Assembly (NCBI GenBank): GCA_951406725.2
Contig: OX597816.1
Coordinates: forward strand, 28,892,001-28,956,000
Reading direction: 5' to 3'
DNA: 64,000 nucleotides
From: Octopus vulgaris
Taxonomy: Eukaryota
Made by a program: the position numbers and the translations under genes. Numbering within the stretch: the first letter of the stretch is position 1; every line of letters begins with the position of its first letter. Below, piece after piece: positions 2,334 through 50,823 of the stretch. The notes beneath the pieces were generated by a model. That model searched no databases and had not been told where the DNA came from. It was given only the letters and a program-made list of their open reading frames with translations.

Positions 2334-2339
2334 TATTAC

Positions 2340-5096: not shown

Positions 5097-5183
<87 letters not shown>

Positions 5184-5194
5184 GTCAGTCTGTC

Positions 5195-5245
<51 letters not shown>

Positions 5246-5248
5246 GTA

Positions 5249-5279
<31 letters not shown>

Positions 5280-5280
5280 T
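5086..5280. repeat. (TCTA)n/(TCTG)n microsatellite
   Basis: Direct reading; contains the left boundary of the large duplication. Confidence 0.95.
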
Positions 5281-7140: not shown

Positions 7141-8006
7141 TAGTGGGAGTTATAATCTGAAGGAGTGGAATAATCTTATATTACAATGAAGAAGCTAAAA
7201 GCAATTACATTTTATTCTAATTCTACCTTCAGTTGCAATATCTTTCAGCTTCAATATAAATGCCATTTTGTAACTAAGCAGGAAGAAACTAACGAAAAAT
7301 AATTTTTGCATCTAAAATTTACACAGAATATGCTGATTTTCTAAAACCCACTCCTTATGGGTTTGGAAAAGCATTAATTTTATCAAGGCCACCACCAAAA
7401 ATCCCTACCCACGCATTAATTTATCGGAAGCCAAAGCAAAAATAAAAATGAATAGAAACAGTTCAAATTTTTTGCAATTTTACATAGTTATACCATTTCT
7501 ATCATAAAACGTATTAGTGCTCACTTTGAAATTCGATAATTTTTTGCGTATTCTCTTTCCGCCTCCCTTCCTCTCTCCTCTTTCCCTTCCTATTCAACTA
7601 ATCACTTGGATACGTTATAGACGAGATAATCTAAGGAGAAACAAGCAGAATTAGATGTGTGAATTGCGTATGTTTCATATGTAGGATCACTTAAATGCCA
7701 GGCTATTTCATTGACATATGCACTGATTACGTTCCATGCAATGCAGACTGAAAGCTATATTTTTTTCAGTTATGCGTTCATAAGAATGAAAACATACCTA
7801 TCCGGGGTGCTTTTCTTAATCTGCATATAACCATATGACTCTGTGAGGATACTTAAGAAGAAGGAACACCGTCTCATCTCCCTATTGGTGTGTAGCTCTG
7901 ATACGAATGAACTGTAAGGAAACATTCATATACAGATGGACAAGAATGAAACAAATATACAAACACACACACATACATATATGAATTTGTATGGACGTGT
8001 ATATAT

Positions 8007-8237
8007 ATTTCTTTACTACCCACAAGGAGCTAAACACAGAGGGGACAAACAAGGACCGACAAACGGATTAAGTCGATTACATCGACCCCAGTGCGTAAAT
8101 GGTACTTAATTTATCGACCCCGAAAGGATGAAAGGCAAAGTCGACCTCGGCGGAATTTGAACTCGGAACGTAACGACAGATGAAATACGGCTACGCATTT
8201 CGCCCGGCGCGCTAACGTTTCTGCCAGCTCACCGCCT
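8007..8237 (-). mobile_element. SINE family B, full length with TSD
   Basis: Flanked by the direct repeat tggacgtgtatatata (~7992 and ~8240). Confidence 0.92.
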
Positions 8238-9105
8238 ATTGGACGTGTATATATACGTGTCTCGTTTCATGTGTATGATAGTGTATATTTCTGCACACAT
8301 ACACACTCGCAAGTACACACACGCACACGCAAGCACAAACGCACGCACACACACACGCGCGCGCGCGCACATATATATATATATATATATATGTTTCTTC
8401 TTTCACTCAAAATTAGTCTGAAGTTGTGTTTATTAAGTCTTGGGGTTAGAAATAATAACTAATTTATCACCTCGAGAAGTTTAGAAAAGTCATAATTAGA
8501 TCATGCCAGAGCTATATGTCCATTCAAGTTTACTCAACTTTTCTCCAAATTATAATTTCTTTTAAGCAAAATCGCTACTTCTAAAATCACTAGAAGAGAC
8601 CAGAATCGTGACTATATTAAATAGTAAAGCCAGTCGCTAAATCAAAGTGGTAGTTGAATGAAATTAGTAGTTTAACCCTAGGTAGATTACCCGCCACTCT
8701 GCACTCTCTAAATACAATATATTATTAGCAGGGAGATCGAATTCCTACCACACTCCGCAGGTATCTGGAAGCGAGATTGACTCAGTTTCGAGCTATTTGG
8801 CTAATTCTCAGTTCCGAGCATCTGTACGCTCGTGCGATAGCCAGAGTCCGCTAACGTTAACAATATATTGTAAACAAAGTGTTCATCAGATGAAGCATCT
8901 TCACTATACAAACGAGTGGGTAGTCTTTGCTGGTGAGGGTTTTACGAGGTCGCGGTGCAAGTCCTACCGCAAATTCTTTTTAGTCGACTTTTCACACATT
9001 CTAACAGGAGAAACGTTGAGTCTATACTTTGATGACATGCTAGTCTTAACACAGCAGAATATAAATGCACGCTCGCACATACACACACGCTTTTGTGTGA
9101 GGACG

Positions 9106-9167
<62 letters not shown>

Positions 9168-9459
9168 GCATGTATTGTATGTATGTATATATATATATAT
9201 ACACAAATATAAATATATATGTATGTATATATATATATATATATATAGACACGCACACACATATATGAATACAGGCACAGAGATATATGCACACATGCAC
9301 TGTGATAAGAAGAGAGCAGAAATCTTCACAGTACATCTTCACTTGCCCCTCACTGTTTCAGTGACAAGAAGTGGATCCAGAACGACTGAGATCGGTGGCG
9401 AGCGGTAGCAAGCCACGGCGTCTACAGTATGTAGAGGGGCGCCTTTAAAACCACCCTTT

Positions 9460-10139
9460 TTGATTCAGTCTTGTTCTAGTTAATAGTAGCACAAAGCACA
9501 CAGTTTGCCGCAAGATATCGGAGAGACGGAAAGGAATAAGAACAGCAGGTGCCGGAACAGGTGCTACTTCTGGATGTGACAAAGGAGAGAAGCTGAGGCA
9601 AGGATAAGCCAACAGAGAAAGCAATCAACAGCTGAGAATCCAACAGGTGTTACTATTCCGGGTCAGTGTAGACCTGGATAAAATAGAGGTTAAGTGGCGT
9701 ATCCACACACCTTCAAACACTTTAACCGCCATAGTAGGCCCCCTCTACCTGATAAGACTGGATGTAGGCCTTATGGATGTCAAAAAATTCGTTCCTAAAA
9801 TCGTCCCAAAGGATTTCTCTTCTCACGCAGAGTTTCTTTCCTCTCTGTTGGAGGCCCTATCTGTTGGAGGTCCTATCTGTTGATCATGAGGCATGGAGAT
9901 CCGTTTGTGATGGTGAAGTAGAGGTATCTTAAACCGAACGTAGGCGATGACAAGAAGAGTGTCGGTATCCAGTGTCTATCGTTTGGGGTTTCCTTCAGTG
10001 TCCCCAGTAACACATGATCTGCCTCTCTCGAATCGGTCTTATCGGCCATATCCAACCGCTTCGATGTGCTGGAGGCGGAGGAGGATGAGTATCTTCGATC
10101 CACACTGTTGATACGCCGTTATAAGCGAGTAAGCAATAC

Positions 10140-10140
<1 letters not shown>
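9460..10140 (+). mobile_element. Probable decayed 5' portion (UTR plus ORF1-like) of a non-LTR retrotransposon
   Basis: GC-richer island with broken frames (KLRQG*ANRESNQQLRIQQVLLFR...; SNRFDVLE, a motif common in LINE ORF1 linkers), a 16-bp internal tandem duplication near 9845-9880, ending in (CA)n. Confidence 0.4.
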
Positions 10141-10185
<45 letters not shown>

Positions 10186-12487
10186 GCTCACACAAACACA
10201 CACAATCACACACGCACATACGCTCACACAAACACACACACAAACACACACACAAACAAACACATGCACAGACGGATGCACACATATATATGTATGTATG
10301 TATATAAACACGCACGCACACACACACACACATATCAAATATATGTTCAGACATATATTAATGTAAATTTATATACATAGGAAATCGTAAAGATACACAG
10401 ATTTTTTTTGTTATGGGGAATAGGTTGCTGAGGAGAAAATCAGAAACTCCTGTGTAAAGTCTTTTCTTGAAACCACTTGCTTGAATGATACGAAGAGACT
10501 TTGGCATATTATGTGCTTTATCTTGCTTTACTTAACTCATATTGTATCAAAAATCCACAAATGATTAACATTAATTAATTACCATACTCATTTTCTGAAT
10601 TATATAGAGTAAAAGTAAGTGTTTTCTGTGTTGAAAATGATTTCATATATTTGCATAAGTTACTTAAATCGGTTACTATAACAGAGCGGTTTGTATATTA
10701 TCGACTCGGGAACCAAAAGGTAAAAAGATGTCTACATATGCGTAGATAGTTTTCATCTCGCATATACGAGCACAGCAGTAGTTTAACAGCATTGTCTGAG
10801 ACCTATATTGATTACACAATTTATAGCCTGATTGTGTAAATTTCTCAAATATACTCAATGACAGTAAGATAAATACCTACAGCACGTACATTCATATGAA
10901 AATATAGCGTCTAATGTTCTTTTTTCAGCAGCTCACTATCCACATATACTGATTTCTACATCATGAGTGTATTATTGCTGTGTATTGACTGCATTGTTTA
11001 TGAAGTGGGCCTTTTCACCAGTTATTGATCTGTAGTGTATTTATCGATATTTATTGCAGAATTGTTTTTCTTCATGTTGTTTTAATCATTTTACTAGCCA
11101 TTTACTATAGATCGTTTGTTGTTTCATTATCTTTTTACCTCTCTGCTCTTTTGCCTGTTTAACATAATGGCTGTAATTTCAATGAATTTTCCTGCTGTTC
11201 TAAATCGTCGATCAATGTTTGTATATTGTGTCCGTTAAAGCTGAATTTTTAGGTTGACATTCAATAACTTTGAATGTTCCAAACACTTTCATTAATGTTT
11301 CATAGAAAAAAAAGACCAATAAATAAAGAGAAGGAGGGAAAAATACGACAAAATGTATTTGTAATGGAATTATTATTTGCTGACTAAGGATTTTTCCCAT
11401 CACTAAATTATATTCTTCTACAATATTTTTTTTCCTGGCACAATAGTTGGTTAAACCTGCTCTTCTGTGAAACACCATAATTTGTTCTTTCACACGCAAT
11501 GAAGTCGGTTGATATTGAAGCAAGTAAACTAACCTCTTCATTTGGCAAATATTTGTTCTGAAATTCGAAATAAAGGGCTTTGTAAGCGATCTACCTTATT
11601 ATTTCTTTAAAAGAAGAATTAAAATAAATCTTAAACATAAAATTTAGGCGTGAACTATAATTAAATAATATATCACTGTCGCATGATTGTGTCAATTTTT
11701 AAATAACAATTTTTAAATCAATGCTCGGTTGCCGGTTTTATAGCGGTTCAAGGCATCGATAACGCATTAGAATTTCATGATGAATACACGTAGGTGCTTC
11801 GACACACACACATACACTCACACACACACATGGATATGCGTATGAAAGTATGCCCGCATCTATGTATGTGTTAGTTAAAAAGTAAAAAGTGGTGAATTTC
11901 CGTTTAATCGTTTGCCTTCAAACTATTTTCCCATTTAAAAACTCAATACATTGTAAATGCTTTAAAATAACGCCTAATAAAATAACATCAACCAATTTAA
12001 ATAAAATGAAATACCAAACACAAAGGTACTCTAGGTTATGTATTTATAATGAATAGATTAGATATAAGGATTAAATTTAACTACTGCAGTTTATAAAACT
12101 TTATAGAAAAATATGTTTTTAAAAATTTATATCCAATCCTTTTTATGTTAAAATTTCAAATATTTGTAATAACATAAAAAATAACAATTAGAATACGCTA
12201 ACAATATTTATCAGTAAAGCAGCTTATCTAATATACAACCTATGTAATATATAACGTATAATCCTAGCTTTATATACTTATGGATATACATACCTGAGTG
12301 TGTGTGGCTGTGTGTGAGTATATGAATGATCATATATGTCTATAAGGTCTGAAGATCGTGTAAAATAACGGTATATGATTTAGGAAAATTGGAGTATTTA
12401 CAGTGTCTCTGTTTGAAATGTCGATATTACTACGTTTAGCGAGGTATATTTATAAGTGTGTCTGTGTGTGTATTTGTATGTGTATAT

Positions 12488-12527
<40 letters not shown>

Positions 12528-13682
12528 ATCATTATGAGGATATATAAGCCTCTTATAGAGCTAGTTTTATCCAAGGTACACTGGTTTATATGATTCTTCA
12601 ATAAATTCATTATACAAATATCAAATATTAAGAAAATAGAGAGATAAATGGATATAAATTATTTTTAATTAATCAATTAAAAATTAATTTATATACATTA
12701 TATATCACCATTTTCTTATTTAATAATATTATATATATATATATATGTGTGTGTGTATGTGTGTATGCGTATACATATGTGTGTGTGTGTATGTGTGTGT
12801 GTATTTCAAATGATTGATGCGGAAGACGTAGTGTAACTAGAAACTTCCTTTAGCACAACAATCCTTTCGACTTCCTTCTGCACTGCTCCCTTGTGGATCT
12901 GAGAAGATGTAATGCCATCAGATACAATACACAGTTTAGAGAGCCTCACCAAGTGACATTGTTCAAAATTTAAAACATTTACTTTTAATTTTCAATTCAA
13001 GTTTTATGTTGGTAGTGTGTTGCTATTAGTTAACACACATTTTGTTGAATTGAGGAAAGTTATCATCTGGAAGTGTTTGATAAAACAATAAAAAATACAA
13101 AGAATCTAATGTAAATGAGGAGAAGGTGTTTATACTCGGAGTCATGAAGTGGTTGAAAGAGTCTAATATTCAGGGGCAGGAGTCCTTATGGCGGTGGATT
13201 GAAGGGGCCCTAAATCGAGTGGATACTTTATATATATATATATATAAATTATAAATATCATTGCAATACAACAGTATTATTTTCCAGCTAAATAGAGCAC
13301 CGTAAAGGTAGAATTATAAATAGGAAATAGTGGTACTACAAGGCACCAATGTCTGCTGGAAATAGCAATCGATAACCGTACGACTCTATGTAAAGCTTCA
13401 CTGAATGTATACAGGCAAAGATGTGTGCAGGTGCGAACATAGAACCTTTTCGTCTTATGTCCAGGAAGAACGCCGGATAAATTGACAATCTAGAGTTGAT
13501 AACCTAGTACTAGAGTTCTGGACTTTCCAGAATAATTTGTTAATGTAAATCTGGTTATTCTTCTTCAGCTAGATTCACTGAAGGCGGAATTTAAAATATC
13601 GGCTACATCAATGCCAGTATATTCACCTGATACACCTTGGCATAAACAGAACCGAGATCAGTGAAAAAGTTTTGTATTAGTA

Positions 13683-13912
13683 TCTATTATATAAAATCTG
13701 TTCTATCAATCTCTGTGTGTGTCTTCTAGGATCTCGGGCATCCTCCATCCGATTGCGCTCAAATTTAATGTGTAGATACCGACGGTATCAGGGCGTGTAT
13801 AATTCTTGAAAAATTACAAAAATCGATTCCAGGTGAGAATGCGATCGATAAAACCGTGGAAACGTGCATTTTCTCGCGCAAGTACATCACCTGTTGCGAT
13901 GTACTTACTGGT
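13683..13912 (+). mobile_element. Non-autonomous Helitron-like element (5' end clear, 3' end uncertain)
   Basis: A|TCTATTATATAAAA start, ccgattgcgctcaaattt motif, hairpin aagtacatc...gatgtactt followed by CTGG|T. Confidence 0.55.
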
Positions 13913-14231
13913 ACTTTAAACTCTTCGGTTGCATATTTGTGTGAATAAAATCGTCTTTCTTTGAAATAGAAAAAAATCTATCTTCATTTCTTCTTTTTCA
14001 AAGTTAGGTTAAATCAGTGTTTCTCAAAGGGGAGGCCTACGGCACGGTCGGACAAGTTGTTCTGAGAATATTTGGTTTAAATATTTGACAAGACAGCACC
14101 GTCTATTGGACGGGGACGTTTTGCTCGTTATAAATATAATTGCAATGCAATAGTATCATTTTCCAGCTAAATAAAGCACCGTAAAGGTAAAATTATAAAT
14201 AGAAAATAGTGGCACAACAAGGCTGCAATAG

Positions 14232-14447
14232 TACTCTTTTACTCTTTTACTTGTTTCAGTCATTTGACTGTGGCCATGCTGGAGCACCGCCTTTAATCGA
14301 GCAACTCGACCCCGGGACTTATTCTTTGTAAGCCCAGTACTTATTCTATCGGTCTCTTTTGCCGAACTGCTAATGACGGGGACATAAACACACAAGCATC
14401 GGTTGTCAAGCAATGCTAGGGGGACAAACACAGACACACAAACATAT

Positions 14448-14488
<41 letters not shown>

Positions 14489-14649
14489 TACGACAGGCTT
14501 CTTTCAGTTTCTGTCTACCAAATCCACTCACAAGGCATTGGTCGGCCCGGGGCTATAGCAGAAGACAGTTGCCCAAGGTGCCACGCAGTGGGACTGAACC
14601 CGGAACCATGTGGTTGGTTAGCAAGCTACTTACCACACAGCCACTCCTG
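14232..14649 (-). mobile_element. SINE family A
   Basis: Reverse complement of family A. Confidence 0.9.
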
Positions 14650-15008
14650 TATTTATAATTTTTATATAATATCTTTTCAGTGATCTCGGTTTTGTTTACG
14701 GCTAGACGTATCAGGCGAATATACTTGCATTGATGTAGCGGATAGTTTAAATTTCGTTTTCGGTGAATCTAGGTGAAGAAGACAAATGAGATTTACGTTA
14801 ACAGACGTATATTGGAAAGTCCAAAACTCGAGTACATCATATCTAACTGAAGAAGACTAAACTGATTTACGATAACAAACGTATTATGGTAAGTCTTCTT
14901 AAACGACATACTGGTCCTTCATCATCACGCTTCGATATTTGAATATACACACATATCCACATACATAGATGCATACATACATATGTACATATATATATAT
15001 ATAGATTT

Positions 15009-15181
15009 TTTTCTTTACTACCCACAAGGGGCTAAACACAGAGGGGACAAACAAGGACAGACAAAGGGATTAAGTCGATTACATCGACCCCAGTGCGTAA
15101 CTGGTACTTAATTTATCGATCCCGAAAGGATGAAAGGCAAAGTCGACCTCGGCGGAATTTGAACTCGGAAAGTAACGACAG
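15009..15181 (-). mobile_element. SINE family B, 5'-truncated
   Basis: Core and tail present, head missing. Confidence 0.88.
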
Positions 15182-15195
15182 TTATATATATACAT

Positions 15196-15268
<73 letters not shown>

Positions 15269-15357
15269 CATGGCCACAGTTCTGAGGGCTGAAACATATC
15301 AATGAATAAAAGAATATGCATTCGTACATATACGCATACATTCCTGCACAAAAACAT

Positions 15358-15407
<50 letters not shown>

Positions 15408-15935
15408 ACAGACTCCTTTTCAGACACGCATTAACATTCATTCTTAAGTACATAATTCATTTTCATTTTTTCTTTATCCTTGACGAAATGTCATGACTCA
15501 TCCTCCAAGCGAAGGCGTCTTTGGAAATTGCAACATCTGCATAAGATATATCAAGATAAATAAAACAAACACCTATAATCCACATTCTATCTGTAATATT
15601 GATATGTTACTTATCGGTGATTACTAAGCAACTGTACTGAAATTTAGGTATCATACCTTTTATCAATTACATTCTCGTATAGATGTATATATTTAAGCAT
15701 ATGTGCGTCAATGAATGCGTATTCATATTGTCTTAAGGATGTAAACATATATTTTACTTCATGTTATAAATATATGTATGTATTATGTATATACATATAT
15801 ATCTCTTCCCCGTACACATACTGTAGTTTTCTACTAATTAGGTGATTTCTTTCGGGGCCACAGTATTTGACTGAGCCAATTTGCTCATTGAGTCTGACTT
15901 TCGATAATCCTTTCGAATAAACATACATATATTAG

Positions 15936-16060
15936 CAATACGGTGTCCTTATAGATATTACCAATATGGTGCCCGATAGATATTACCAATATGGTGCCCG
16001 ATAGATATTACCAATACTGTGCCCTTATAGATATTACGAATATGGTGCCCGATAGATATT
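15936..16060. repeat. Minisatellite, ~5 x 25-26 bp (caatatggtgcccgatagatattac)
   Basis: Contiguous units without spacers; duplicated at ~28118-28242. Confidence 0.9.
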
Positions 16061-16942
16061 CTTTTTGGAACGCTTTCTTCTATAACTATGCCGATTCATC
16101 TAGCCTAAATCAGCAAGTGTTTTATTTCACTAATTTTAAGTAAGAGAAAATATCTTTTAACTACCAACGTAGTGACAATACGATCGCATTAAAACCAAGT
16201 ATACCTTATCCCACGTGGAATTCCTCTTGCACTATCCTGACTGTATTGATATCAATAGCCATGTATACAATACCGATGCACCAGTACGCCATTTAAGAAG
16301 ACGTTAGAACAATTCAAACTAAAATCTATTTCGGTGCCATGAAAACGGTCGTGATCGAAGCTGATTTCGAAGTAAACCCTTTAGGTAAAACAACGTCGAC
16401 ATTAAGCATCTTACTTTAAAGAGATGGCTCCCGTTCCTGACAATAATCAATCTACTCAAACATAGATAAATGGACAAAATCTTTCATAAGAGAGATCTGG
16501 AATAATGTAAACAAACCACTGCTGCCATCACTGAATTCTCGTATCTCACAAAGAGACAATTGTGGTATGCTTTTAGCTGAGACGTTTCTCAAAACCACAG
16601 TTCGTAAAAAGGCTAACTTGTTTTCAAAACTATTTTCGAGCGAGAGACTTTTCTGAACAAGATTATGGAAAAATCCAACTGGTCTTATATTGAGAGTGTG
16701 ATGTGGTGGGAGAGTACATGGAGCCATATCATGTTAATTACGGGAATATTAATAATCACCTATACATAAATACGTAAAGAACGCATAGTAGAAATCTCAT
16801 ATTAAACGAAAAGAAATTACTAAACGGAAGCAGCCTAGATAAAAAGCAAAATTTGACGAAAATATTAATAATCTGTGCCGCTATTAGCATGTTTGCTACT
16901 ATAATAATAACGCATTCACACCTCATCAATTATATCTTATGT

Positions 16943-17233
16943 GGAGGCACATGGCCTAGTGGTTAGAGCTGCGGACTCGCGGTCGAAGGAGACCGGGTTC
17001 GAATCTCAGACCGGGCGATGTGTGTGTTTATGAGCGAAACACCTAAGCTCCGGTAGAAGGTAATGGCGAATTTGTGTTGACTCTTTCGCCACAGCTTTCT
17101 CTCACTCTTTTTCCTCCTGTATCTTGCAGCTCACCTGCGATGGACCGGCGTCCCGTCCAGGTGGGGAACCTATACGCCAAGGAAACCGGGAAATCGGCCC
17201 TTATGAGCCAGGCATGGCTCGAGAAGGAACAAA
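16943..17233 (+). mobile_element. tRNA-derived SINE family C with 13-bp TSD
   Basis: A box tggcctagtggttag, B box ggttcgaatct; TSD attatatcttatg at 16929-16941 and 17236-17248. Confidence 0.9.
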
Positions 17234-17257
17234 CTATTATATCTTATGCAGAAATAA

Positions 17258-17357: not shown

Positions 17358-17371
17358 TATCTGTCAGTCTG

Positions 17372-17426
<55 letters not shown>

Positions 17427-17429
17427 GTA

Positions 17430-17460
<31 letters not shown>

Positions 17461-18926
17461 TTATTCATATATTTATGGATAGATAGAACGATATGCATTC
17501 ATACCTAAATCCAGACATATATATGCATCTGCGTGTTTCTCTCTCTCTCCCTCTGTATGTACGTATGTGTATGTATGTGTGTGTTTCTCTCGTTTCTTTA
17601 CTGTCATTGACTCTGCAAATTCCCCAAACATTACTCGCGGCATTAATAGTAAGATCTTTCTGTAAAATATTTTATATAGAAAGCAAATTCCGTTTACATT
17701 ACTAAGTGGTAGCACTTAATATTTAAGTATCTGGAAAATTATTTAATATCTAGTAGATAGAAAATTCAAAGCAACTCGAAAAATACGATAATGGAAATCT
17801 AAATTGTTTGATGACCAATAATATTTGCTCTTTGCGATGTATGGGGAGACAAATTTGAATGATTTTGACTTCGTCCAATCTCCTTAACGTGATTGGAGAC
17901 AAGCTGTAAATTTACAAAAGAATTAACGCTAAGATCGAGAAGCAGATAAATGGATATTTATTGGTAGGAACGACAAAATAAGGGTAACAATTACATATAT
18001 ATTGAGATTGCATCAACCTGACGTCTACGAAGCTAAATATGGAAACATATATTCAAAAATTGGGCACTTGAAATCTGCAATAAAATATGATATTTGCTAA
18101 AGAAGTCTATTGTTCATAAAATGGGATATGGTTGACTGTTAAAACGTACTAAGGATTGCATGCATACATATGCACACATGCTCGCACACAGATACTCATA
18201 AACTCACCCTCACATATTTCTGGGCGTAAATTAGAAGATTTACAGAAAAATAGAATCAGATGTACAATCGGTAATGAACAGTTATGTTAAAAATTGGTAA
18301 GCTTACAAGAAATGAGTTTAAATTAAATGTCTTGGGTTTGTTGGTTTAAAATAAGGTAGCAGCTGACGTTAGAATTGAGTGGATTCGGATGGCAAACCTA
18401 ATGAAATTATTTAAAAGATCACTTGGATATTTTGGGTAATATATTGGTAATATAACTAAATTTGAAGTGTAGTATAATTTCGTGTGCATGCCTAACTAAG
18501 GTTATACCTAATGGTTTACGCAAATTCTGTGTAAGACAATTTAAATTTGGTGCATATTAAGTAGCGAAGTTAATTCGTCTCAAATTTGTTGGTTTTAAAC
18601 ATTATAGAATTTTCTGGGGCAGGGTTTCTTGTTATCAAGATTCCAAGAATACTGGATTTATAATTAATTATGGTCATAGTTAGCAAGAATTTTTGTATCT
18701 ACAGAAAATTCATTTTCGTATTATCGGGAGCAAAAGCATGGGTCACTGAAGGTATGCCTAAATATCAGTTCAACTTTAGTTAAAAGACAGAAACTAGCTT
18801 ATATTCTTTTTCAAATTTTGAATGACACGCCACATCCGCATCATATCTGCAAACCCGCATCTTATTCATCACTTTATACTTTATAATGAGTGGATTTAAG
18901 AAAAAACATATATTATTTCTTTCATA

Positions 18927-19322
18927 GGCGCAGGAGTGGCTGTGTGGTAAGTAGCTTGCTTACGAACCACATGGTTCCGGGTTCAGTCCCACTGCGTGGC
19001 ACCTCGGGCAAATGTCTTCTACTATAGCTTCGGGCCGACCAATGCCTTGTGAGTGGATTTGGTGAGACGGAAGCTGAAAGAAGCCTGTCGTATATATGTA
19101 TGTGTGAGTGTTTGTGTGTCTGTGTTTGTCCCCCTAGCATTGCCTGACAACCGATGCTGGTGTGTTTATGTCCCCGTTACTTAGCGTTTCGGCAAAAGAG
19201 ACCGATAGAATAAGTACTGGGCTTACAAAGAAAAAGTCCCGGGGTCGAGTTGCTCGATTAAAGGCGGTGCTCCAGCATGGCAGCAGTCAAATGACTGAAA
19301 CAAGTAAAAGAGTAAAAGAGTA
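18927..19322 (+). mobile_element. SINE family A (duplicate of 6746-7140)
   Basis: Sequence identity. Confidence 0.9.
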
Positions 19323-20189
19323 TAGTGGGAGTTATAATCTGAAGGAGTGGAATAATCTTATATTACAATGAAGAAGCTAAAAGCAATTACATTTTATTCT
19401 AATTCTACCTTCAGTTGCAATATCTTTCAGCTTCAATATAAATGCCATTTTGTAACTAAGCAGGAAGAAACTAACGAAAAATAATTTTTGCATCTAAAAT
19501 TTACACAGAATATGCTGATTTTCTAAAACCCACTCCTTATGGGTTTGGAAAAGCATTAATTTTATCAAGGCCACCACCAAAAATCCCTACCCACGCATTA
19601 ATTTATCGGAAGCCAAAGCAAAAATAAAAATGAATAGAAACAGTTCAAATTTTTTGCAATTTTACATAGTTATACCATTTCTATCATAAAACGTATTAGT
19701 GCTCACTTTGAAATTCGATAATTTTTTGCGTATTCTCTTTCCGCCTCCCTTCCTCTCTCCTCTTTCCCTTCCTATTCAACTAATCACTTGGATACGTTAT
19801 AGACGAGATAATCTAAGGAGAAACAAGCAGAATTAGATGTGTGAATTGCGTATGTTTCATATGTAGGATCACTTAAATGCCAGGCTATTTCATTGACATA
19901 TGCACTGATTACGTTCCATGCAATGCAGACTGAAAGCTATATTTTTTTCAGTTATGCGTTCATAAGAATGAAAACATACCTATCCGGGGTGCTTTTCTTA
20001 ATCTGCATATAACCATATGACTCTGTGAGGATACTTAAGAAGAAGGAACACCGTCTCATCTCCCTATTGGTGTGTAGCTCTGATACGAATGAACTGTAAG
20101 GAAACATTCATATACAGATGGACAAGAATGAAAACAAATATACAAACACACACACATACATATATGAATTTGTATGGACGTGTATATAT

Positions 20190-20419
20190 ATTTCTTTACT
20201 ACCCACAAGGAGCTAAACACAGAGGGGACAAACAAGGACCGACAAACGGATTAAGTCGATTACATCGACCCCAGTGCGTAAATGGTACTTAATTTATCGA
20301 CCCCGAAAGGATGAAAGGCAAAGTCGACCTCGGCGGAATTTGAACTCGGAACGTAACGACAGATGAAATACGGCTACGCATTTCGCCCGGCGCGCTAACG
20401 TTTCTGCCAGCTCACCGCC
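20190..20419 (-). mobile_element. SINE family B (duplicate of 8007-8237)
   Basis: Sequence identity. Confidence 0.9.
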
Positions 20420-21286
20420 TATTGGACGTGTATATATACGTGTCTCGTTTCATGTGTATGATAGTGTATATTTCTGCACACATACACACTCGCAAGTACA
20501 CACACGCACACGCAAGCACAAACGCACGCACACACACACGCGCGCGCGCGCACATATATATATATATATATATGTTTCTTCTTTCACTCAAAATTAGTCT
20601 GAAGTTGTGTTTATTAAGTCTTGGGGTTAGAAATAATAACTAATTTATCACCTCGAGAAGTTTAGAAAAGTCATAATTAGATCATGCCAGAGCTATATGT
20701 CCATTCAAGTTTACTCAACTTTTCTCCAAATTATAATTTCTTTTAAGCAAAATCGCTACTTCTAAAATCACTAGAAGAGACCAGAATCGTGACTATATTA
20801 AATAGTAAAGCCAGTCGCTAAATCAAAGTGGTAGTTGAATGAAATTAGTAGTTTAACCCTAGGTAGATTACCCGCCACTCTGCACTCTCTAAATACAATA
20901 TATTATTAGCAGGGAGATCGAATTCCTACCACACTCCGCAGGTATCTGGAAGCGAGATTGACTCAGTTTCGAGCTATTTGGCTAATTCTCAGTTCCGAGC
21001 ATCTGTACGCTCGTGCGATAGCCAGAGTCCGCTAACGTTAACAATATATTGTAAACAAAGTGTTCATCAGATGAAGCATCTTCACTATACAAACGAGTGG
21101 GTAGTCTTTGCTGGTGAGGGTTTTACGAGGTCGCGGTGCAAGTCCTACCGCAAATTCTTTTTAGTCGACTTTTCACACATTCTAACAGGAGAAACGTTGA
21201 GTCTATACTTTGATGACATGCTAGTCTTAACACAGCAGAATATAAATGCACGCTCGCACATACACACACGCTTTTGTGTGAGGACG

Positions 21287-21318
<32 letters not shown>

Positions 21319-21376
21319 GCATGTATTGTATGTATGTATATATATATATATACACAAATATAAATATATATGTATG

Positions 21377-21421
<45 letters not shown>

Positions 21422-22308
21422 GCACACACATATATGAATACAGGCACAGAGATATATGCACACATGCACTGTGATAAGAAGAGAGCAGAAATCTTCACAG
21501 TACATCTTCACTTGCCCCTCACTGTTTCAGTGACAAGAAGTGGATCCAGAACGACTGAGATCGGTGGCGAGCGGTAGCAAGCCACGGCGTCTACAGTATG
21601 TAGAGGGGCGCCTTTAAAACCACCCTTTTTGATTCAGTCTTGTTCTAGTTAATAGTAGCACAAAGCACACAGTTTGCCGCAAGATATCGGAGAGACGGAA
21701 AGGAATAAGAACAGCAGGTGCCGGAACAGGTGCTACTTCTGGATGTGACAAAGGAGAGAAGCTGAGGCAAGGATAAGCCAACATAGAAAGCAATCAACAG
21801 CTGAGAATCCAACAGGTGTTACTATTCCGGGTCAGTGTAGACCTGGATAAAATAGAGGTTAAGTGGCGTATCCACACACCTTCAAACACTTTAACCGCCA
21901 TAGTAGGCCCCCTCTACCTGATAAGACTGGATGTAGGCCTTATGGATGTCAAAAAATTCGTTCCTAAAATCGTCCCAAAGGATTTCTCTTCTCACGCAGA
22001 GTTTCTTTCCTCTCTGTTGGAGGCCCTATCTGTTGGAGGCCCTATCTGTTGATCATGAGGCATGGAGATCCGTTTGTGATGGTGAAGTAGAGGTATCTTA
22101 AACCGAACGTAGGCGATGACAAGAAGAGTGTCGGTATCCAGTGTCTATCGTTTGGGGTTTCCTTCAGTGTCCCCAGTAACACATGATCTGCCTCTCTCGA
22201 ATCGGTCTTGTCGGCCATATCCAACCGCTTCGATGTGCTGGAGGCGGAGGAGGATGAGTATCTTCGATCCACACTGTTGATACGCCGTTATAAGCGAGTA
22301 AGCAATAC

Positions 22309-22362
<54 letters not shown>

Positions 22363-25300
22363 GCTCACACAAACACACACAATCACACACGCACATACGC
22401 TCACACAAACACACACACAAACACACACACAAACAAACACATGCACAGACGGATGCACACATATATATGTATGTATGTATATAAACACGCACGCACACAC
22501 ACACACACATATCAAATATATGTTCAGACATATATTAATGTAAATTTATATACATAGGAAATCGTAAAGATACACAGATTTTTTTTTTTATGGGGAATAG
22601 GTTGCTGAGGAGAAAATCAGAAACTCCTGTGTAAAGTCTTTTCTTGAAACCACTTGCTTGAATGATACGAAGAGACTTTGGCATATTATGTGCTTTATCT
22701 TGCTTTACTTAACTCATATTGTATCAAAAATCCACAAATGATTAACATTAATTAATTACCATACTCATTTTCTGAATTATATAGAGTAAAAGTAAGTGTT
22801 TTCTGTGTTGAAAATGATTTCATATATTTGCATAAGTTACTTAAATCGGTTACTATAACAGAGCGGTTTGTATATTATCGACTCGGGAACCAAAAGGTAA
22901 AAAGATGTCTACATATGCGTAGATAGTTTTCATCTCGCATATACGAGCACAGCAGTAGTTTAACAGCATTGTCTGAGACCTATATTGATTACACAATTTA
23001 TAGCCTGATTGTGTAAATTTCTCAAATATACTCAATGACAGTAAGATAAATACCTACAGCACGTACATTCATATGAAAATATAGCGTCTAATGTTCTTTT
23101 TTCAGCAGCTCACTATCCACATATACTGATTTCTACATCATGAGTGTATTATTGCTGTGTATTGACTGCATTGTTTATGAAGTGGGCCTTTTCACCAGTT
23201 ATTGATCTGTAGTGTATTTATCGATATTTATTGCAGAATTGTTTTTCTTCATGTTGTTTTAATCATTTTACTAGCCATTTACTATAGATCGTTTGTTGTT
23301 TCATTATCTTTTTACCTCTCTGCTCTTTTGCCTGTTTAACATAATGGCTGTAATTTCAATGAATTTTCCTGCTGTTCTAAATCGTCGATCAATGTTTGTA
23401 TATTGTGTCCGTTAAAGCTGAATTTTTAGGTTGACATTCAATAACTTTGAATGTTCCAAACACTTTCATTAATGTTTCATAGAAAAAAAAGACCAATAAA
23501 TAAAGAAAAGGAGGGGAAAATACTACAAAATGTTGGTTTTGTAATGGAATTATTATTTGCTGACTAAGGATTTTTCCCATCACTAAATTATATTCTTCTA
23601 CAATATTTTTTTTCCTGGCACAATAGTTGGTTAAACCTGCTCTTCTGTGAAACACCATAATTTGTTCTTTCACACGCAATGAAGTCGGTTGATATTGAAG
23701 CAAGTAAACTAACCTCTTCATTTGGCAAATATTTGTTCTGAAATTCGAAATAAAGGGCTTTGTAAGCGATCTACCTTATTATTTCTTTAAAAGAAGAATT
23801 AAAATAAATCTTAAACATAAAATTTAGGCGTGAACTATAATTAAATAATATATCACTGTCGCATGATTGTGTCAATTTTTAAATAACAATTTTTAAATCA
23901 ATGCTCGGTTGCCGGTTTTATAGCGGTTCAAGGCATCGATAACGCATTAGAATTTCATGATGAATACACGTAGGTGCTTCGACACACACACATACACTCA
24001 CACACACACGCATGGATATGCGTATGAAAGTATGCCCGCATCTATGTATGTGTTAGTTAAAAAGTAAAAAGTGGTGAATTTCCGTTTAATCGTTTGCCTT
24101 CAAACTATTTTCCCATTTAAAAACTCAATACATTGTAAATGCTTTAAAATAACGCCTGATAAAATAACATCAACCAATTTAAATAAAATGAAATACCAAA
24201 CACAAAGGTACTCTAGGTTATGTATTTATAATGAATAAATTAGATATAAGGATTAAATTTAACTACTGCATTTTATAAAACTTTATAGAAAAATATGTTT
24301 TTAAAAATTTATATCCAATCCTTTTTATGTTAAAAATTCAAATATTTGTAATAACATAAAAAATAACAATTAGAATACGCTAACAATATTTATCAGTAAA
24401 GCAGCTTATCTAATATACAACCTATGTAATATATAACGTATAATCCTAGCTTTATATACTTATGGATATACATACCTGAGTGTGTGTGGCTGTGTGTGAG
24501 TATATGAATGATCATATATGTCTATAAGGTCTGAAGATCGTGTAAAATAACGGTATATGATTTAGGAAAATTGGAGTATTTACAGTGTCTCTGTTTGAAA
24601 TGTCGATATTACTACGTTTAGCGAGGTATATTTATAAGTGTGTCTGTGTGTGTATTTGTATGTGTATATTGTGCATATATATATATATATATATATATTT
24701 AATCATTATGAGGATACATAAGCCTCTTATAGAGCTAGTTTTATCCAAGGTACACTGGTTTATATGATTCTTCAATAAATTCATTATACAAATATCAAAT
24801 ATTAAGAAAATACAGAGATAAATGGATATAAATTATTTTTAATTAATCAATTAAAAATTAATTTATATACATTATATATCACCATTTTCTTATTTAATAA
24901 TATTATATATATATATGTGTGTGTGTGTATGTGTGTATGCGTATACATATGTGTGTGTGTGTATGTGTGTGTGTATTTCAAATGATTGATGCGGAAGACG
25001 TAGTGTAACTAGAAACTTCCTTTAGCACAACAATCCTTTCGACTTCCTTCTGCACTGCTCCCTTGTGGATCTGAGAAGATGTAATGCCATCAGATACAAT
25101 ACACAGTTTAGAGAGCCTCACCAAGTGACATTGTTCAAAATTTAAAACATTTACTTTTAATTTTCAATTCAAGTTTTATGTTGGTAGTGTGTTGCTACTA
25201 GTTAACACACATTTTGTTGAATTGAGGAAAGTTATCATCTGGAAGTGTTTGATAAAACAATAAAAAATACAAAGAATCTAATGTAAATGAGGAGAAGGTG

Positions 25301-26409
25301 TTTATACTCGGAGTCATGAAGTGGTTGAAAGAGTCTAATATTCAGGGGCAGGAGTCCTTATGGCGGTGGATTGAAGGGGCCCTAAATCGAGTGGATACTT
25401 TATATATATATATATATAAATTATAAATATCATTGCAATACAACAGTATTATTTTCCAGCTAAATAGAGCACCGTAAAGGTAGAATTATAAATAGGAAAT
25501 AGTGGTACTACAAGGCACCAATGTCTGCTGGAAATAGCAATCGATAACCGTACGACTCTATGTAAAGCTTCACTGAATGTATACAGGCAAAGATGTGTGC
25601 AGGTGCGAACATAGAACCTTTTCGTCTTATGTCCAGGAAGAACGCCGGATAAATTGACAATCTAGAGTTGATAACCTAGTACTAGAGTTCTGGACTTTCC
25701 AGAATAATTTGTTAATGTAAATCTGGTTATTCTTCTTCAGCTAGATTCACTGAAGGCGGAATTTAAAATATCGACTACATCAATGCCAGTATATTCACCT
25801 GATACACCTTGGCATAAACAGAACCGAGATCAGTGAAAAAGTTTTGTATTAGTATCTATTATATAAAATCTGTTCTATCAATCTCTGTGTGTGTCTTCTA
25901 GGATCTCGGGCATCCTCCATCCGATTGCGCTCAAATTTAATATGTAGATACCGACGGTATCAGGGCGTGTATAATTCTTGAAAAATTACAAAAATCGATT
26001 CCAGGTGAGAATGCGATCGATAAAACCGTGGAAACGTGCATTTTCTCGCGCAAGTACATCACCTGTTGCGATGTACTTACTGGTACTTTAAACTCTTCGG
26101 TTGCATATTTGTGTGAATAAAATCGTCTTTCTTTGAAATAGAAAAAAATCTATCTTCATTTCTTCTTTGCTTTTCAAAGTTAGGTTAAATCAGTGTTTCT
26201 CAAAGGGGAGGCCTACGGCACGGTCGGACAAGTTGTTCTGAGAATATTTGGTTTAAATGTTTGACAAGACAGCACCGTCTATTGGACGGGGACGTTTTGC
26301 TCGTTATAAATATAATTGCAATGCAATAGTATCATTTTCCAGCTAAATAAAGCACCGTAAAGGTAAAATTATAAATAGAAAATAGTGGCACAACAAGGCG
26401 GTGCAATAG

Positions 26410-26625
26410 TACTCTTTTACTCTTTTACTTGTTTCAGTCATTTGACTGTGGCCATGCTGGAGCACCGCCTTTAATCGAGCAACTCGACCCCGGGACTTAT
26501 TCTTTGTAAGCCCAGTACTTATTCTATCGGTCTCTTTTGCCGAACTGCTAATGACGGGGACATAAACACACAAGCATCGGTTGTCAAGCAATGCTAGGGG
26601 GACAAACACAGACACACAAACATAT

Positions 26626-26666
<41 letters not shown>

Positions 26667-26827
26667 TACGACAGGCTTCTTTCAGTTTCTGTCTACCAAA
26701 TCCACTCACAAGGCATTGGTCGGCCCGGGGCTATAGCAGAAGACAGTTGCCCAAGGTGCCACGCAGTGGGACTGAACCCGGAACCATGTGGTTGGTTAGC
26801 AAGCTACTTACCACACAGCCACTCCTG
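26410..26827 (-). mobile_element. SINE family A (duplicate of 14232-14649)
   Basis: Sequence identity. Confidence 0.9.
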
Positions 26828-27188
26828 TATTTATAATTTTTATATAATATCTTTTCAGTGATCTCGGTTTTGTTTACGGCTAGACGTATCAGGCGAATAT
26901 ACTTGCATTGATGTAGCGGATAGTTTAAATTTCGTTTTCGGTGAATCTAGGTGAAGAAGACAAATGAGATTTACGTTAACAGACGTATATTGGAAAGTCC
27001 AAAACTCGAGTACATCATATCTAACTGAAGAAGACTAAACTGATTTACGATAACAAACGTATTATGGTAAGTCTTCTTAAACGACATACTGGTCCTTCAT
27101 CATCACGCTTCGATATTTGAATATACACACATATCCACATACATAGATGCATACATACATATGTACATATATATATATATAGATTTTT

Positions 27189-27344
27189 TTCTTTACTACC
27201 CACAAGGGGCTAAACACAGAGGGGACAAACAAGGACAGACTAAGGGATTAAGTCGATTACATCGACCCCAGTGCGTAACTGGTACTTAATTTATCGATCC
27301 CGAAAGTCGACCTCGGCGGAATTTGAACTCGGAACGTAACGACA
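27189..27344 (-). mobile_element. SINE family B (duplicate of 15009-15181, with a small internal deletion)
   Basis: Lacks the gatgaaaggcaaag segment present in copy 1. Confidence 0.88.
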
Positions 27345-27359
27345 GTTATATATATACAT

Positions 27360-27458
<99 letters not shown>

Positions 27459-27543
27459 GGCCACAGTCTGAGGGCTGAAACATATCAATGAATAAAAGAA
27501 TATGCATTCGTACATATACGCATACATTCCTGCACAAAAACAT

Positions 27544-27583
<40 letters not shown>

Positions 27584-29124
27584 TCACACACACACTCCTT
27601 TTCAGACACGCATTAACATTCATTCTTAAGTACATAATTCATTTTCATTTTTTCTTTATCCTTGACGAAATGTCATGACTCATCCTCCAAGCGAAGGCGT
27701 CTTTGGAAATTGCAACATCTGCATAAGATATATCAAGATAAATAAAACAAACACCTATAATCCACATTCTATCTGTAATATTGATATGTTACTTATCGGT
27801 GATTACTAAGCAACTGTACTGAAATTTAGGTATCATACCTTTTATCAATTACATTCTCGTATATATGTATATATTTAAGCATATGTGCGTCAATGAATGC
27901 GTATTCATATTGTCTTAAGGATGTAAACATATATTTTACTTCATGTTATAAATATATGTATGTATTATGTATATACATATATATCTCTTCCCCGTACACA
28001 TACTGTAGTTTTCTACTAATTAGGTGATTTCTTTCGGGGCCACAGTATTTGACTGAGCCAATTTGCTCATTGAGTCTGACTTTCGATAATCCTTTCGAAT
28101 AAACATACATATATTAGCAATACGGTGCCCTTATAGATATTACCAATATGGTGCCCGATAGATATTACCAATATAGTGCCCGATAGATATTACCAATACT
28201 GTGCCCTTAAAGATATTACGAATATGGTGCCCGATAGATATTCTTTTTGGAACGCTTTCTTCTATAACTATGCCGATTCATCTAGCCTAAATCAGCAAGT
28301 GTTTTATTTCACTAATTTTAAGTAAGAGAAAATATCTTTTAACTACCAACGTAGTGACAATACGATCGCATTAAAACCAAGTATACCTTATCCCACGTGG
28401 AATTCCTCTTGCACTATCCTGACTGTATTGATATCAATAGCCATGTATACAATACCGATGCACCAGTACGCCATTTAAGAAGACGTTAGAACAATTCAAA
28501 CTAAAATCTATTTCGGTGCCATGAAAACGGTCGTGATCGAAGCTGATTTCGAAGTAAACCCCTTTAGGTAAAACAACGTCGACATTAAGCATCTTACTTT
28601 AAAGAGATGGCTCCCGTTCCTGACAATAATCAATCTACTCAAACATAGATAAATGGACAAAATCTTTCATAAGAGAGATCTGGAATAATGTAAACAAACC
28701 ACTGCTGCCATCACTGAATTCTCGTATCTCACAAAGAGACAATTGTGGTATGCTTTTAGCTGAGACGTTTCTCAAAACCACAGTTCGTAAAAAGGCTAAC
28801 TTGTTTTCAAAACTATTTTCGAGCGAGAGACTTTTCTGAACAAGATTATGGAAAAATCCAACTGGTCTTATATTGAGAGTGTGATGTGGTGGGAGAGTAC
28901 ATGGAGCCATATCATGTTAATTACGGGAATATTAATAATCACCTATACATAAATACGTAAAGAACGCATAGTAGAAATCTCATATTAAACGCAAAGAAAT
29001 TACTAAACGGAAGCAGCCTAGATAAAAAGCAAAATTTGACGAAAATATTAATAATCTGTGCCGCTATTAGCATGTTTACTACTATAATAATAACGCATTC
29101 ACACCTCATCAATTATATCTTATG

Positions 29125-29414
29125 TGGAGGCACATGGCCTAGTGGTTAGAGCTGCGGACTCGCGGTCGAAGGAGAGCGGGTTCGAATCTCAGACCGGGCG
29201 ATGTGTGTGTTTATGAGCGAAACACCTAAGCTCCGGTAGAAGGTAATGGCGAATTTGTGTTGACTCTTTCGCCACAGCTTTCTCTCACTCTTTCCTCCTG
29301 TATCTTGCAGCTCACCTGCGATGGACCGGCGTCCCGTCCAGGTGGGGAACCTATACGCCAAGGAAACCGGGAAATCGGCCCTTATGAGCCAGGCATGGCT
29401 CGAGAAGGAACAAA
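29125..29414 (+). mobile_element. SINE family C (duplicate of 16943-17233)
   Basis: Sequence identity, same TSD. Confidence 0.9.
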
Positions 29415-30177
29415 CTATTATATCTTATGCAGAAATAAACACATTTATAAGAGATACTTCAACATGGAAAATTAGGACCCCGAGGAAAACTTTCACTACT
29501 ACAGGAGAATGTTCGAATAAGTCAATGTAAATCGCAAGTGTACTTCCAAAGCCCAGGCATTATACGGTGAGATGAGGAAGGAAAACAATACTGACTAGAA
29601 AGGCTCCCACTTAAGAAGACCCTGGTCAAAAATGTGGAATGAAAAACAGTAATTTCAAATTCAATGCATCCTTGGGAGAAAATGCCGTAACAATATCGAC
29701 AATAAAACATATAGAACTGACCCAGAAACATTCACTACAGCTGTAGGCGAACTACCTACTGGGATGGAACATGGATGAGACCAAGTTGGATAGTACAAGA
29801 GGCCGATATATTACAAAAACACATTATTATGCATATTCAAATAGAATATGGAAGATCAGATTGTATTACCAAATTCGCTTGCTACAATGAAGAATCTTGT
29901 GACCAAGAATGGAACCGCCGATATGACAGAAACGTATCGCTTGCCTAAACAAACCTGCTAACTGGTCACAAGCTGCATTAACCAATTCCTCTGGGGTTCT
30001 GCCGAACAACATTTTGATGCATCTCCAATGCAGTGACTATTTCAAAGGGAATATTCCCAAAAAGACTTTTTGTAATACTCTTCATTCTGGAAATATTTAT
30101 ATGATGACCTCCCGTACAAGCCCAAAACATTCGGACCAATATACCTTAAAGAAGACTATGATGAGGAAGTTGAACAC

Positions 30178-48805: not shown

Positions 48806-49655
48806 AAGAGAGCGCGGGAGGTTTCTTTTCAATTTGATGTGTCAGCCCATTGAAATTTTATTACAAAGCATTTTTCTTTTTTTACTTAATTTTTTCTCTT
48901 CCTCCTTTACCCTTATCAACATATTTGTAAATAAACACATTTTTCACAAAGGGCTAGATGACCTTTCAAGATCTTAATTTCGGAAGTACGACGGGAAAGA
49001 TAAGAAAAGATAGGAGAGTGCAGTCATCATTGAAAAGAAGAAAAGATCAAAGGCCTATGAAAATGCATATTCCATTATTCATGTTTTGGCAAGTCCTATA
49101 TTCTGTGTAATTCCATGTTTTGCACCAATAAACGTTAATTATTAGTACAACCTTCATAAATTAGGAAAGTAAAGACAGAATATAAAAAGTAATTTGAATT
49201 GATAATGTTTGGTTTTCAGTCTACTCTCTATGTACATTTAGTCGGACACCATATATATATATTGTATATTTAGCAGGATATAAATTATGTAACAAAGCAG
49301 AGCTTGCTTAAATATATTTTTGAGTATCATTAAGCCTTTCGTAGGATTTCTTCATTTTTTGTTTGCTTGCTTGGGAATTTCTGACAGCCTCCTTTTACTC
49401 AATATATAATATCTGTACACCACTTCAAGCACTTTATGCATACATACATACATACATACATACATACATACATACATACATACATGCATACATATGTATA
49501 TATTATATTATATATATATATATATATATACAAAATCAGAAAATGGAGAAATACATCTAAATCATTAATCAACTACCAGATAATACCCAATCACATACTT
49601 TATTGAACTTTATTGAACCACTACATAAGAACATTAATATATATATATATATATA

Positions 49656-50449
49656 TACAAGTAATAAGAGAGAGACCACACGTGGTCACTCTAATGCTAG
49701 AAATAGATCGGCAAAGGGAATCCACCACTAAAGAATTGTTCTCAAGCATTAATTCAACGCTGGACAAATGAAAAATAACGAAAAAATAGATTAACTCTAT
49801 ACAATTGTTTCATCGTTAATAGATTGTGTAATTTTACTTACGTAATCATTTTCGAATCCTCAGTAGAGTATATCAAAAATATAATTCGCTGAATCGAACG
49901 CCAAAATCCATACAAAGCCGAGCAAAGGCAAACGGCACAGCCGATTATATTTGCAGTTATGTTCAAATATCCTCATTTTTGGCGCGTTGAAAATACAGGA
50001 TGTAAATACTACCCCAGTAATTTACTGCCGGTTTGAGAACATATTAATTTTAATTAAAATCACAATAAGGGTGAAAAAAATTGAATATTAATTAATAACA
50101 TCAATTTAGAACACCAAGTGGCCTAGCGTAAAAAATGATTATGTAAGTAAAATTACATAATCTATTAACGATGAAACAATTGTATAGAGTTAATCTATTT
50201 TTTCGTTACTTTTCATTTGTCCTGCCCGCTTACATTCTTGGCGTGTTGAATTAATGCTTGAGAACAATTCTTTAGTGGTGGATTCCATTTGCGGATCTAT
50301 TTCTAGCGTTAGAGTAACCACATGTGGCCTCACTCTTATTACTTGTATTAATTATTTTTACTGTATCCCAGTTTTTTTTACGCTAGGCCACTTGGTGTTC
50401 TAAATTGATGTTATTAATTAATATTCAATTTGTTTCACCCTTATTGTGA

Positions 50450-50458
<9 letters not shown>
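49656..50458. mobile_element. Hammerhead-containing non-coding element as two inverted, circularly permuted copies between (TA)n tracts
   Basis: 49656-49852 is the reverse complement of ~50132-50347; ~50050-50135 is the reverse complement of ~50373-50458. Confidence 0.8.
49794..49869 (-). ncRNA. Minimal type I hammerhead ribozyme, core motifs intact
   Basis: ACUCUA-CUGAGGA-uucg...cgau-GAAA-CAAUUG-UA|UAGAGU: perfect 6-bp stem I, palindromic stem III, GUA triplet; predicted cut between 49800 and 49799. Confidence 0.8.
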
Positions 50459-50491
<33 letters not shown>

Positions 50492-50506
50492 GTGTGTGTG
50501 TGTGTC

Positions 50507-50539
<33 letters not shown>

Positions 50540-50823
50540 CATATATATATGCATATATATGTATATATATATATTTATGTATATAAATATATATACATAT
50601 ATATATATACGCATACACACACACACGCACTCACACACATATATGTATATGTGTCGTTCAATGCTCGAAATGAGGAATAGAGAGCTAACAACTGTTGAAG
50701 GGTCATTTTGTGTGTTACTTGTACAGTTTTCTATTTCTTCTCTCTGCGCATTGAACTAATTTGTTTTCCTATTTCATATTGTATGCTGTTTACTGTCGGT
50801 GACGTCATGTACCCATATACACA

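Follow-up and report, generated by a model that had tools for sequence, protein, structure and literature searches.

Animal non-LTR retrozymes are described as non-coding, low-GC units, each with a single type I hammerhead whose stem III is palindromic, and they form large dispersed families with head-to-tail closure in which solo or partial copies are common (PMC7229834; bioRxiv 10.64898/2026.07.22.740005). Retrozyme-like repeats have been reported in molluscs and many other invertebrates, and the retrozymes of mussel, coral and axolotl are expressed as circles (Cervera 2020, PMC7229834). Based on co-occurrence and pLTR homology, and mainly in vertebrates, Li 2026 relates the animal retrozymes to the pLTRs of Penelope-like elements (PLEs) and argues that the animal non-LTR retrozyme is a non-autonomous PLE (bioRxiv 10.64898/2026.07.22.740005). 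The insertions of endonuclease-bearing PLEs are known for a head-to-head inverted, 5'-truncated copy, microhomology or a palindrome at the junction, an extension at one end only, an AT-rich or (TA)n target and an intact hammerhead near the 3' end (PMC3846280, PMC8557442, PMC11167929). Head-to-head is the most frequent PLE junction, joined by microhomology (Arkhipova 2013, PMC3846280), and truncated PLEs with hammerheads on opposite strands 100-700 bp apart have been reported (Cervera 2014). The inverted 5'-truncated copy, the one-sided tail and the (TA)n bias of PLEs are also described by Craig 2021, as is the target-site duplication of Naiads, likewise unreadable in (TA)n (PMC8557442). Short non-coding derivatives with pLTRs and head-to-tail copies are known from the non-autonomous Chlamys PLEs, for example MRC1 (Craig 2021, PMC8557442).

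For cephalopods, the O. vulgaris repeat paper gives 31 recently active Penelope-like families, and the giant squid genome paper, in its available text, counts 235 hammerhead-1 matches and presents no analysis of them. Our literature search turned up no cephalopod retrozyme among the papers listed; the supplements of PMC7229834 and Li 2026 may list the family described below or its host. The search on Penelope and twin priming found no paper on the PLE mechanism, judged by title. In L1 twin priming, reportedly set out by Ostertag and Kazazian in 2001, two cDNAs are said to be primed on opposite target strands and joined head-to-head with microhomology, the two pieces lying next to each other in a single RNA that ends in poly(A). 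The two arms of the locus analysed here differ from such inversions in that they overlap by ~280 nt and have no poly(A).

We analysed a 64-kb stretch of O. vulgaris DNA (the window), which is AT-rich and dense in microsatellites, with a GC content of 27-44%. The region 49640-50470 was used as a blastn query against the whole window. This search uncovered two inverted arms built from the segments A, X and B, a linker (L) and a hammerhead (HHR). The features are as follows, with the basis of each in parentheses.

49637-49657, no strand: left (TA)n target run, whose last 3 nt the minus arm also has at its 3' end (sequence)
49655-50135, minus strand: long arm B-X-HHR-A, 481 nt, with its 5' end within the T-run where L and B meet and its 3' end at the end of A (blastn)
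49655-49799, minus strand: segment A of the minus arm, 3' of the cleavage site and without a 19-nt piece of the plus arm (blastn)
49794-49869, minus strand: type I hammerhead motif with putative activity (descriptor match and fold)
49853-50050, minus strand: segment X, single copy here (blastn)
50051-50135, minus strand: segment B of the minus arm, with an AT-rich imperfect palindrome mid-segment (blastn)
50130-50135, no strand: head-to-head junction, an A6 run with a 4-nt microhomology of both 5' ends
50132-50348, plus strand: short arm, 3' hammerhead half and segment A, without CUGAGGA; site at 50184/50185 (blastn)
50349-50373, plus strand: linker L, 25 nt, a sequence of the family and not specific to the locus (run contigs)
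50374-50458, plus strand: segment B of the plus arm (blastn)
50457-50489, no strand: right (TA)n target run, then more microsatellite (sequence)

The minus arm (50135-49655) reads B-X-HHR-A and the plus arm (50132-50458) reads partial HHR-A-L-B. Blastn and the sequence agree on this order, on the A-run shared by the arms and on the (TA)n at both outer ends, all as given in the initial annotation. On the A side, 49655-49852 (minus strand) matches 50132-50348 (plus strand) in 187 of 217 columns (E 3e-74), and the arms differ there by 11 substitutions in 198 aligned bases and a single 19-nt indel. The two copies of segment B, 50051-50135 and 50374-50458, match at 84 of 85 positions (E 7e-38). No third copy of the element was found by blastn within the 64-kb window. 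The 5' ends of the arms meet in the A6 run, to which the minus arm contributes T6 and the plus arm A4, with 4 nt common to both. The outer 3' ends of both arms enter (TA)n and have 2-3 nt in common with it; because both element ends lie inside (TA)n, a target-site duplication is not readable. Together, L and B (110 nt) form an extension at one end only, similar to a PLE tail, although the tails in print measure 30-40 nt. The GC content of the element is 33%, below 45%. Within 49655-50458, no frame that starts with ATG exceeds 49 aa; the element has no protein-coding capacity, as had been claimed before, and A-L-B-X holds no ORF remnant. A 10-nt tandem duplication is located at 49598-49618, ~20 nt left of the (TA)n target, and no match to it was seen in the right flank.

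To characterize the hammerhead, we used a type I descriptor consisting of the core, a U-H site and a stem I of at least 5 Watson-Crick pairs. Across both strands of the window it gave one match, with C3 at 49863, G12 at 49811 and H17 (A) at 49800, while 30 block-shuffled windows gave 0.03-0.07 matches each. The descriptor assigned the following parts.

49869-49864 with 49799-49794, minus strand: stem I, 6 bp
49863-49857, minus strand: CUGAGGA core half
49856-49812, minus strand: stem II, 45 nt, with U·U at its base
49811-49808, minus strand: GAAA, then the palindromic stem III
49800/49799, minus strand: predicted cleavage, after A 49800

The predicted site is the one already proposed in the initial annotation. 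Stem I and the palindromic stem III are present in the centroid structure, and the 90-nt hammerhead region folds no better than shuffles (z -0.72). Stem II is closed by U·U, not G-C, and the conserved G10.1-C11.1 pair, which PLE hammerheads mostly retain (Cervera 2014), is missing. Rfam at the gathering score had no match over the full 64 kb, and at E up to 5 its 18 matches in 49500-50600 were all microsatellite noise and included no hammerhead. In a relative in the public run X6 (record 18 and a loose end), the core half is CUGAUGA, stem I shows a compensatory change, the site is GUC and the base of stem II is fully paired over 5 bp. Compared across these copies, the motif is a real, conserved hammerhead layout, and self-cleavage of the copy in the window is putative. 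A palindromic stem III marks hammerheads that act as dimers (Cervera 2014), and the hammerhead here would act as a dimer in tandem transcripts. The locus holds one complete and one half hammerhead on opposite strands and no consecutive complete pair; with only one complete motif, it could not release a monomer alone. We also tried a minimal hammerhead through the first GAAA (49853), which was rejected since the sequence after this GAAA offers no U-H site for which stem I would match. Further CUGAUGA...GAAA cores with a well-paired stem II are located at 44157 and 55753 (both plus strand); neither passed as type I with the descriptor, and both could be PLE hammerheads in decay.

We then turned to public sequencing runs. 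Among the 24 runs listed, 20 contain part of the stretch and none is recorded as RNA. Contigs of four of these 24 were aligned to the element: two DNA-type runs (X1 and X3) and two runs (X6 and X9, with 9 and 25 contigs) guessed as 'RNA?', which serve as sequence evidence only and are proof neither of transcription nor of silence. The family contigs aligned numbered 497 in X1 and 601 in X3, most of them 90-99% alike and carrying two species labels. The repeat family is large, high-copy and dispersed.

The structure of the repeat unit can be read from these contigs. Record 17 of X6 (555 nt, depth 8.5) reads A-L-B-X-HHR-A; in sense, it consists of 50335-50378, 50129-50027, 194 unaligned nt and 50139-50266. 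This contig gives a unit length of 538 nt, and the arms in the window give 506 and 525 nt. Its X is less than 85% alike over the 194 nt, and the whole closure path rests on this one contig. The copy begins inside A, which indicates that B is not a fixed terminal repeat, and a unit that closes on itself at 506-538 nt leaves no room for an ORF. The adjacency of B and X was also found in X1 record 4, X3 record 13 and X9 record 23, and A-L-B was colinear in X1 records 5-8, X3 record 16 and X9 record 28. X1 record 5 is identical to 50281-50383, showing that the plus arm is present in real DNA. A second family 3' end, inside B, enters a microsatellite in both X1 and X3 (loose end 50066). The permuted ~0.5 kb unit proposed earlier is borne out in that it closes at 506-538 nt and its 5' ends vary between copies; a tandem of two hammerheads was not seen in the aligned contigs, in which all pieces are shorter than two units. 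The possibility that B is the terminal repeat of a longer coding element with fixed ends does not hold for these copies.

The same contigs bear on a different reading, in which the arms are end fragments (pLTR and tail) of a long coding PLE and the 0.5 kb unit is only a minor internally deleted subfamily. In both DNA runs, the summed contig depth, which is not a copy number, is ~16 times lower in X than in B, in line with this reading; most copies could stop in B, have another X, or lead into other, possibly coding, sequence. The reading is also favored by X6 and X9 contigs that have only the hammerhead region in common with the element, followed by at least 200 nt of unlike sequence, and by an unrelated metagenome contig with the same hammerhead layout beside an 867-aa ORF whose Atlas neighbors include RT-bearing clusters. 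However, each of the two blocks B-X-HHR and A-L-B is found colinear in several contigs of the family under both species labels, one contig closes the loop in 538 nt, A-L-B-X lacks an ORF remnant, and only 1% of the aligned material of X1 and X3, from contigs that are short, continues into unlike sequence. We consider it improbable that the arms derive from such a coding element.

At the loose ends 49813, 50171, 50201 and 50237 (X1, X6 and X9), only the hammerhead region is common, followed by at most 255 nt of unlike sequence; these contigs represent related hammerhead families and may be the ends of coding PLEs. Homologues of the element were found neither in the metagenome contigs, nor in the viral contigs, nor in the prokaryote genomes scanned. 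A gapped hammerhead pattern search identified two metagenome loci that have only the searched motif in common with the element. The first (L001) carries a type I hammerhead at 21-83 (minus strand), downstream of the 867-aa ORF at 480-3081 (minus strand), with a palindromic stem III as in the element. This ORF has no Pfam match, and its Atlas neighbors (0.94-0.97) include clusters with RVT_1 in 16-48% of members; hammerhead and ORF together are probably an unrelated PLE. The second (L002) carries the end of L001 beside a short hexamer repeat.

We analyzed the joints between family segments in the run contigs. Among the 13 joints listed, seven were head-to-head by strand, one was inverted without a given polarity, five were colinear or same-sense, and none was clearly tail-to-tail. 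The inverted joints listed (run contigs) are:

49727/50335, head-to-head joint
49757/50244, head-to-head joint
49791/50192, head-to-head joint
49821/50159, head-to-head joint
49883/50219, head-to-head joint
49913/50107, head-to-head joint
49979/50210, head-to-head joint
49886/49942, inverted joint, polarity not given

The 5' ends at the listed joints are scattered from unit position 8 to 504. Three of the seven head-to-head joints form near-perfect palindromes, which could have arisen by artefactual fold-back; PLE junctions can be palindromic as well (Arkhipova 2013, PMC3846280). The joint 49913/50107 has a depth of 544 in X1 and 2646 in X3, whereas the remaining pieces listed have ~7-46 in X1 and 38-78 in X3; under both species labels, its depth is roughly 40-50 times that of single-locus-like contigs. 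This suggests that the inverted insertion itself was multiplied, alone or inside another repeat. Two joints, 49791/50192 and 50026/50191, lie 7-9 nt downstream of the position where cleavage is predicted, hinting weakly that some cDNAs may terminate close to a 5' end made by self-cleavage.

These joints are also relevant to whether the inversion arose after insertion, through recombination or repair between two nearby insertions, or is a fold-back of the assembly. The differences between the two A segments are in line with such an origin, as are the flaws of the assembly, which has a 12-kb duplication at an N gap in the window, and the fact that no listed contig is shown to span 50130. On the other hand, arms this divergent are not a fold-back, the contig identical to 50281-50383 places the plus arm in DNA, and junctions of this kind recur in many further copies of the family. 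A later inversion or an assembly error is therefore very unlikely. The gap in divergence between A and B was considered as a sign of two templates and dismissed, as it is not significant (Fisher p 0.12); this also speaks against a later inversion. The duplication in the assembly is a 12.1-kb direct one (5179-17257 and 17358-29438, 98.8%) flanking a 100-N gap, and is likely a haplotype or assembly duplication.

Taken together, we think that the locus is probably one insertion of a non-coding hammerhead repeat, a likely non-autonomous Penelope-like derivative copied in trans by a PLE RT-endonuclease. The inversion is likely the usual inverted, 5'-truncated PLE-style insertion in (TA)n. A special template switch, as invoked by the initial annotation, is not needed, since published PLE insertions are as a rule inverted in this way. 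The single PLE protein examined in vitro cleaves and extends the two strands of AT-rich DNA, initiates at two internal positions of the RNA that delimit the tail, and works with RNA that is uncleaved (Frangieh 2024, PMC11167929). This agrees with two cDNAs that start at the ends of A and B and are joined through their A- and T-runs. Several points speak against a non-autonomous PLE: the 110-nt extension, the drop in depth from B to X, the closure by one contig, the three palindromic joints, the U·U stem II and the lack of a readable target-site duplication. With Pfam, an RT or GIY-YIG family was found in none of the 72 window frames scanned (162 candidate frames), with one weak sub-threshold match. 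Likewise, neither these frames nor the metagenome, viral and prokaryote collections scanned yielded an autonomous PLE with ends matching the element.

The starting RNA of the insertion would be a head-to-tail transcript with the hammerhead uncut, longer than a single unit and comprising at least B-X-HHR-A-L-B (~610 nt). The transcript would then be bound by a PLE protein acting in trans, which would nick both strands of the (TA)n run. Two cDNAs would be primed at two internal starts, the end of A and the end of B, and the 110-nt L+B tail, present on a single side, would result from the start at the end of B. Synthesis would halt after 481 and 327 nt, and the 3' ends of the two cDNAs (A-run and T-run) would anneal over 4 nt, with fill-in giving the inverted pair. 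In an alternative last step, one cDNA would fold back at the same 4-nt microhomology, which is close to the self-priming proposed by Arkhipova 2013 (PMC3846280). We hold the version with two cDNAs to be somewhat better than an even bet, with the fold-back behind it as a serious second.

Both arms cross the cleavage site intact, which indicates that the template was not a cleaved linear monomer and was either an uncleaved multimer or a religated circle. If a single molecule served both arms, it held at least B-X-HHR-A-L-B. The multimeric side of the template proposed earlier, a circular or multimeric RNA, agrees with the uncut site in both arms. The circle specifically has so far found no support: neither arm outruns a single unit, the aligned contigs show no tandem of two hammerheads, and none of the runs that contain the element is recorded as RNA.

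A reading that differs only in the template is that a hammerhead-processed circular RNA of ~0.5 kb was copied. This would be a true retrozyme cycle, in which a tandem transcript undergoes double self-cleavage and ligation and is reverse transcribed by a PLE or LINE protein. The crossing of the cleavage site by both arms and the permuted 5' ends among copies fit a circle. Folded in silico, a 525-nt circle beats shuffles (z -2.8), as does the 506-nt version (z -2.4), but two of seven control stretches of the window also reached z -2.4 or lower, so these scores are weak. X at 49974-49991 is complementary to A at 50233-50250 in an 18-nt helix; its score was reached by one of 200 shuffles, and the pairing was found after looking. 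The two B copies carry the same three alleles, which are missing from most of the aligned family contigs, and this suits one template. However, neither arm is longer than one unit, the short contig pieces contain no two-hammerhead tandem, stem II is non-canonical, and the unit exceeds the 170-400 nt of known animal circles (Cervera 2020, PMC7229834). In vitro, PLE insertion had no need for cleavage in the one PLE tested (Frangieh 2024, PMC11167929), and eight of nine Xenopus retrozyme dimers were uncut (Li 2026, bioRxiv 10.64898/2026.07.22.740005). An uncleaved tandem transcript accounts for the same sequence, and a circle is allowed and not required. We regard the circular template as possible but doubtful. 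It is still less likely that the family is active as a retrozyme whose circular RNA of ~525 nt folds into a rod, which would exceed the verified animal circles in size and likely be the first in a cephalopod, with head-to-head insertions that can be re-mobilised as composites, as the depth of the joint 49913/50107 would suggest. If that were true, the family would be a natural ORF-free substrate for studying how PLE proteins build inverted insertions.

Compared with animal retrozymes, the unit of 506-538 nt falls within the size range of 51-972 bp given by Li 2026 (bioRxiv 10.64898/2026.07.22.740005) and is larger than the circles of Cervera 2020. The locus differs from them in its 45-nt stem II with a U·U base and in having an inverted rather than a tandem partner. 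Li 2026 terms retrozymes active when two or more consecutive units have complete hammerheads (bioRxiv 10.64898/2026.07.22.740005), and the locus has no such pair. It differs from endonuclease-bearing PLEs in the lack of an RT/GIY-YIG ORF and in the length of its extension (110 nt versus 30-40 nt), and from the Chlamys PLEs in that those are green algal and belong to a clade mostly without canonical hammerheads (Craig 2021, PMC8557442). On sequence features, the locus would best be called a dispersed, inverted derivative of the animal non-LTR retrozyme type.

Both the class and the architecture are already published (Cervera 2020; Arkhipova 2013; Craig 2021; Li 2026), and knowledge of the retrozyme and PLE classes themselves is unchanged. 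The locus adds a family to the link between animal retrozymes and PLEs: an invertebrate repeat whose unit is of the retrozyme type shows the inverted insertion style of PLEs. As a young family with many head-to-head junctions, it can be used to test twin priming against fold-back, a question listed as open by Craig 2021 (PMC8557442).

Elsewhere in the window, a 106-aa frame without a Pfam match is located at 2844-3164 (minus strand). Its motifs are presumably those of the C-terminal zinc-knuckle and restriction-like endonuclease of R4/Dong-type LINEs.
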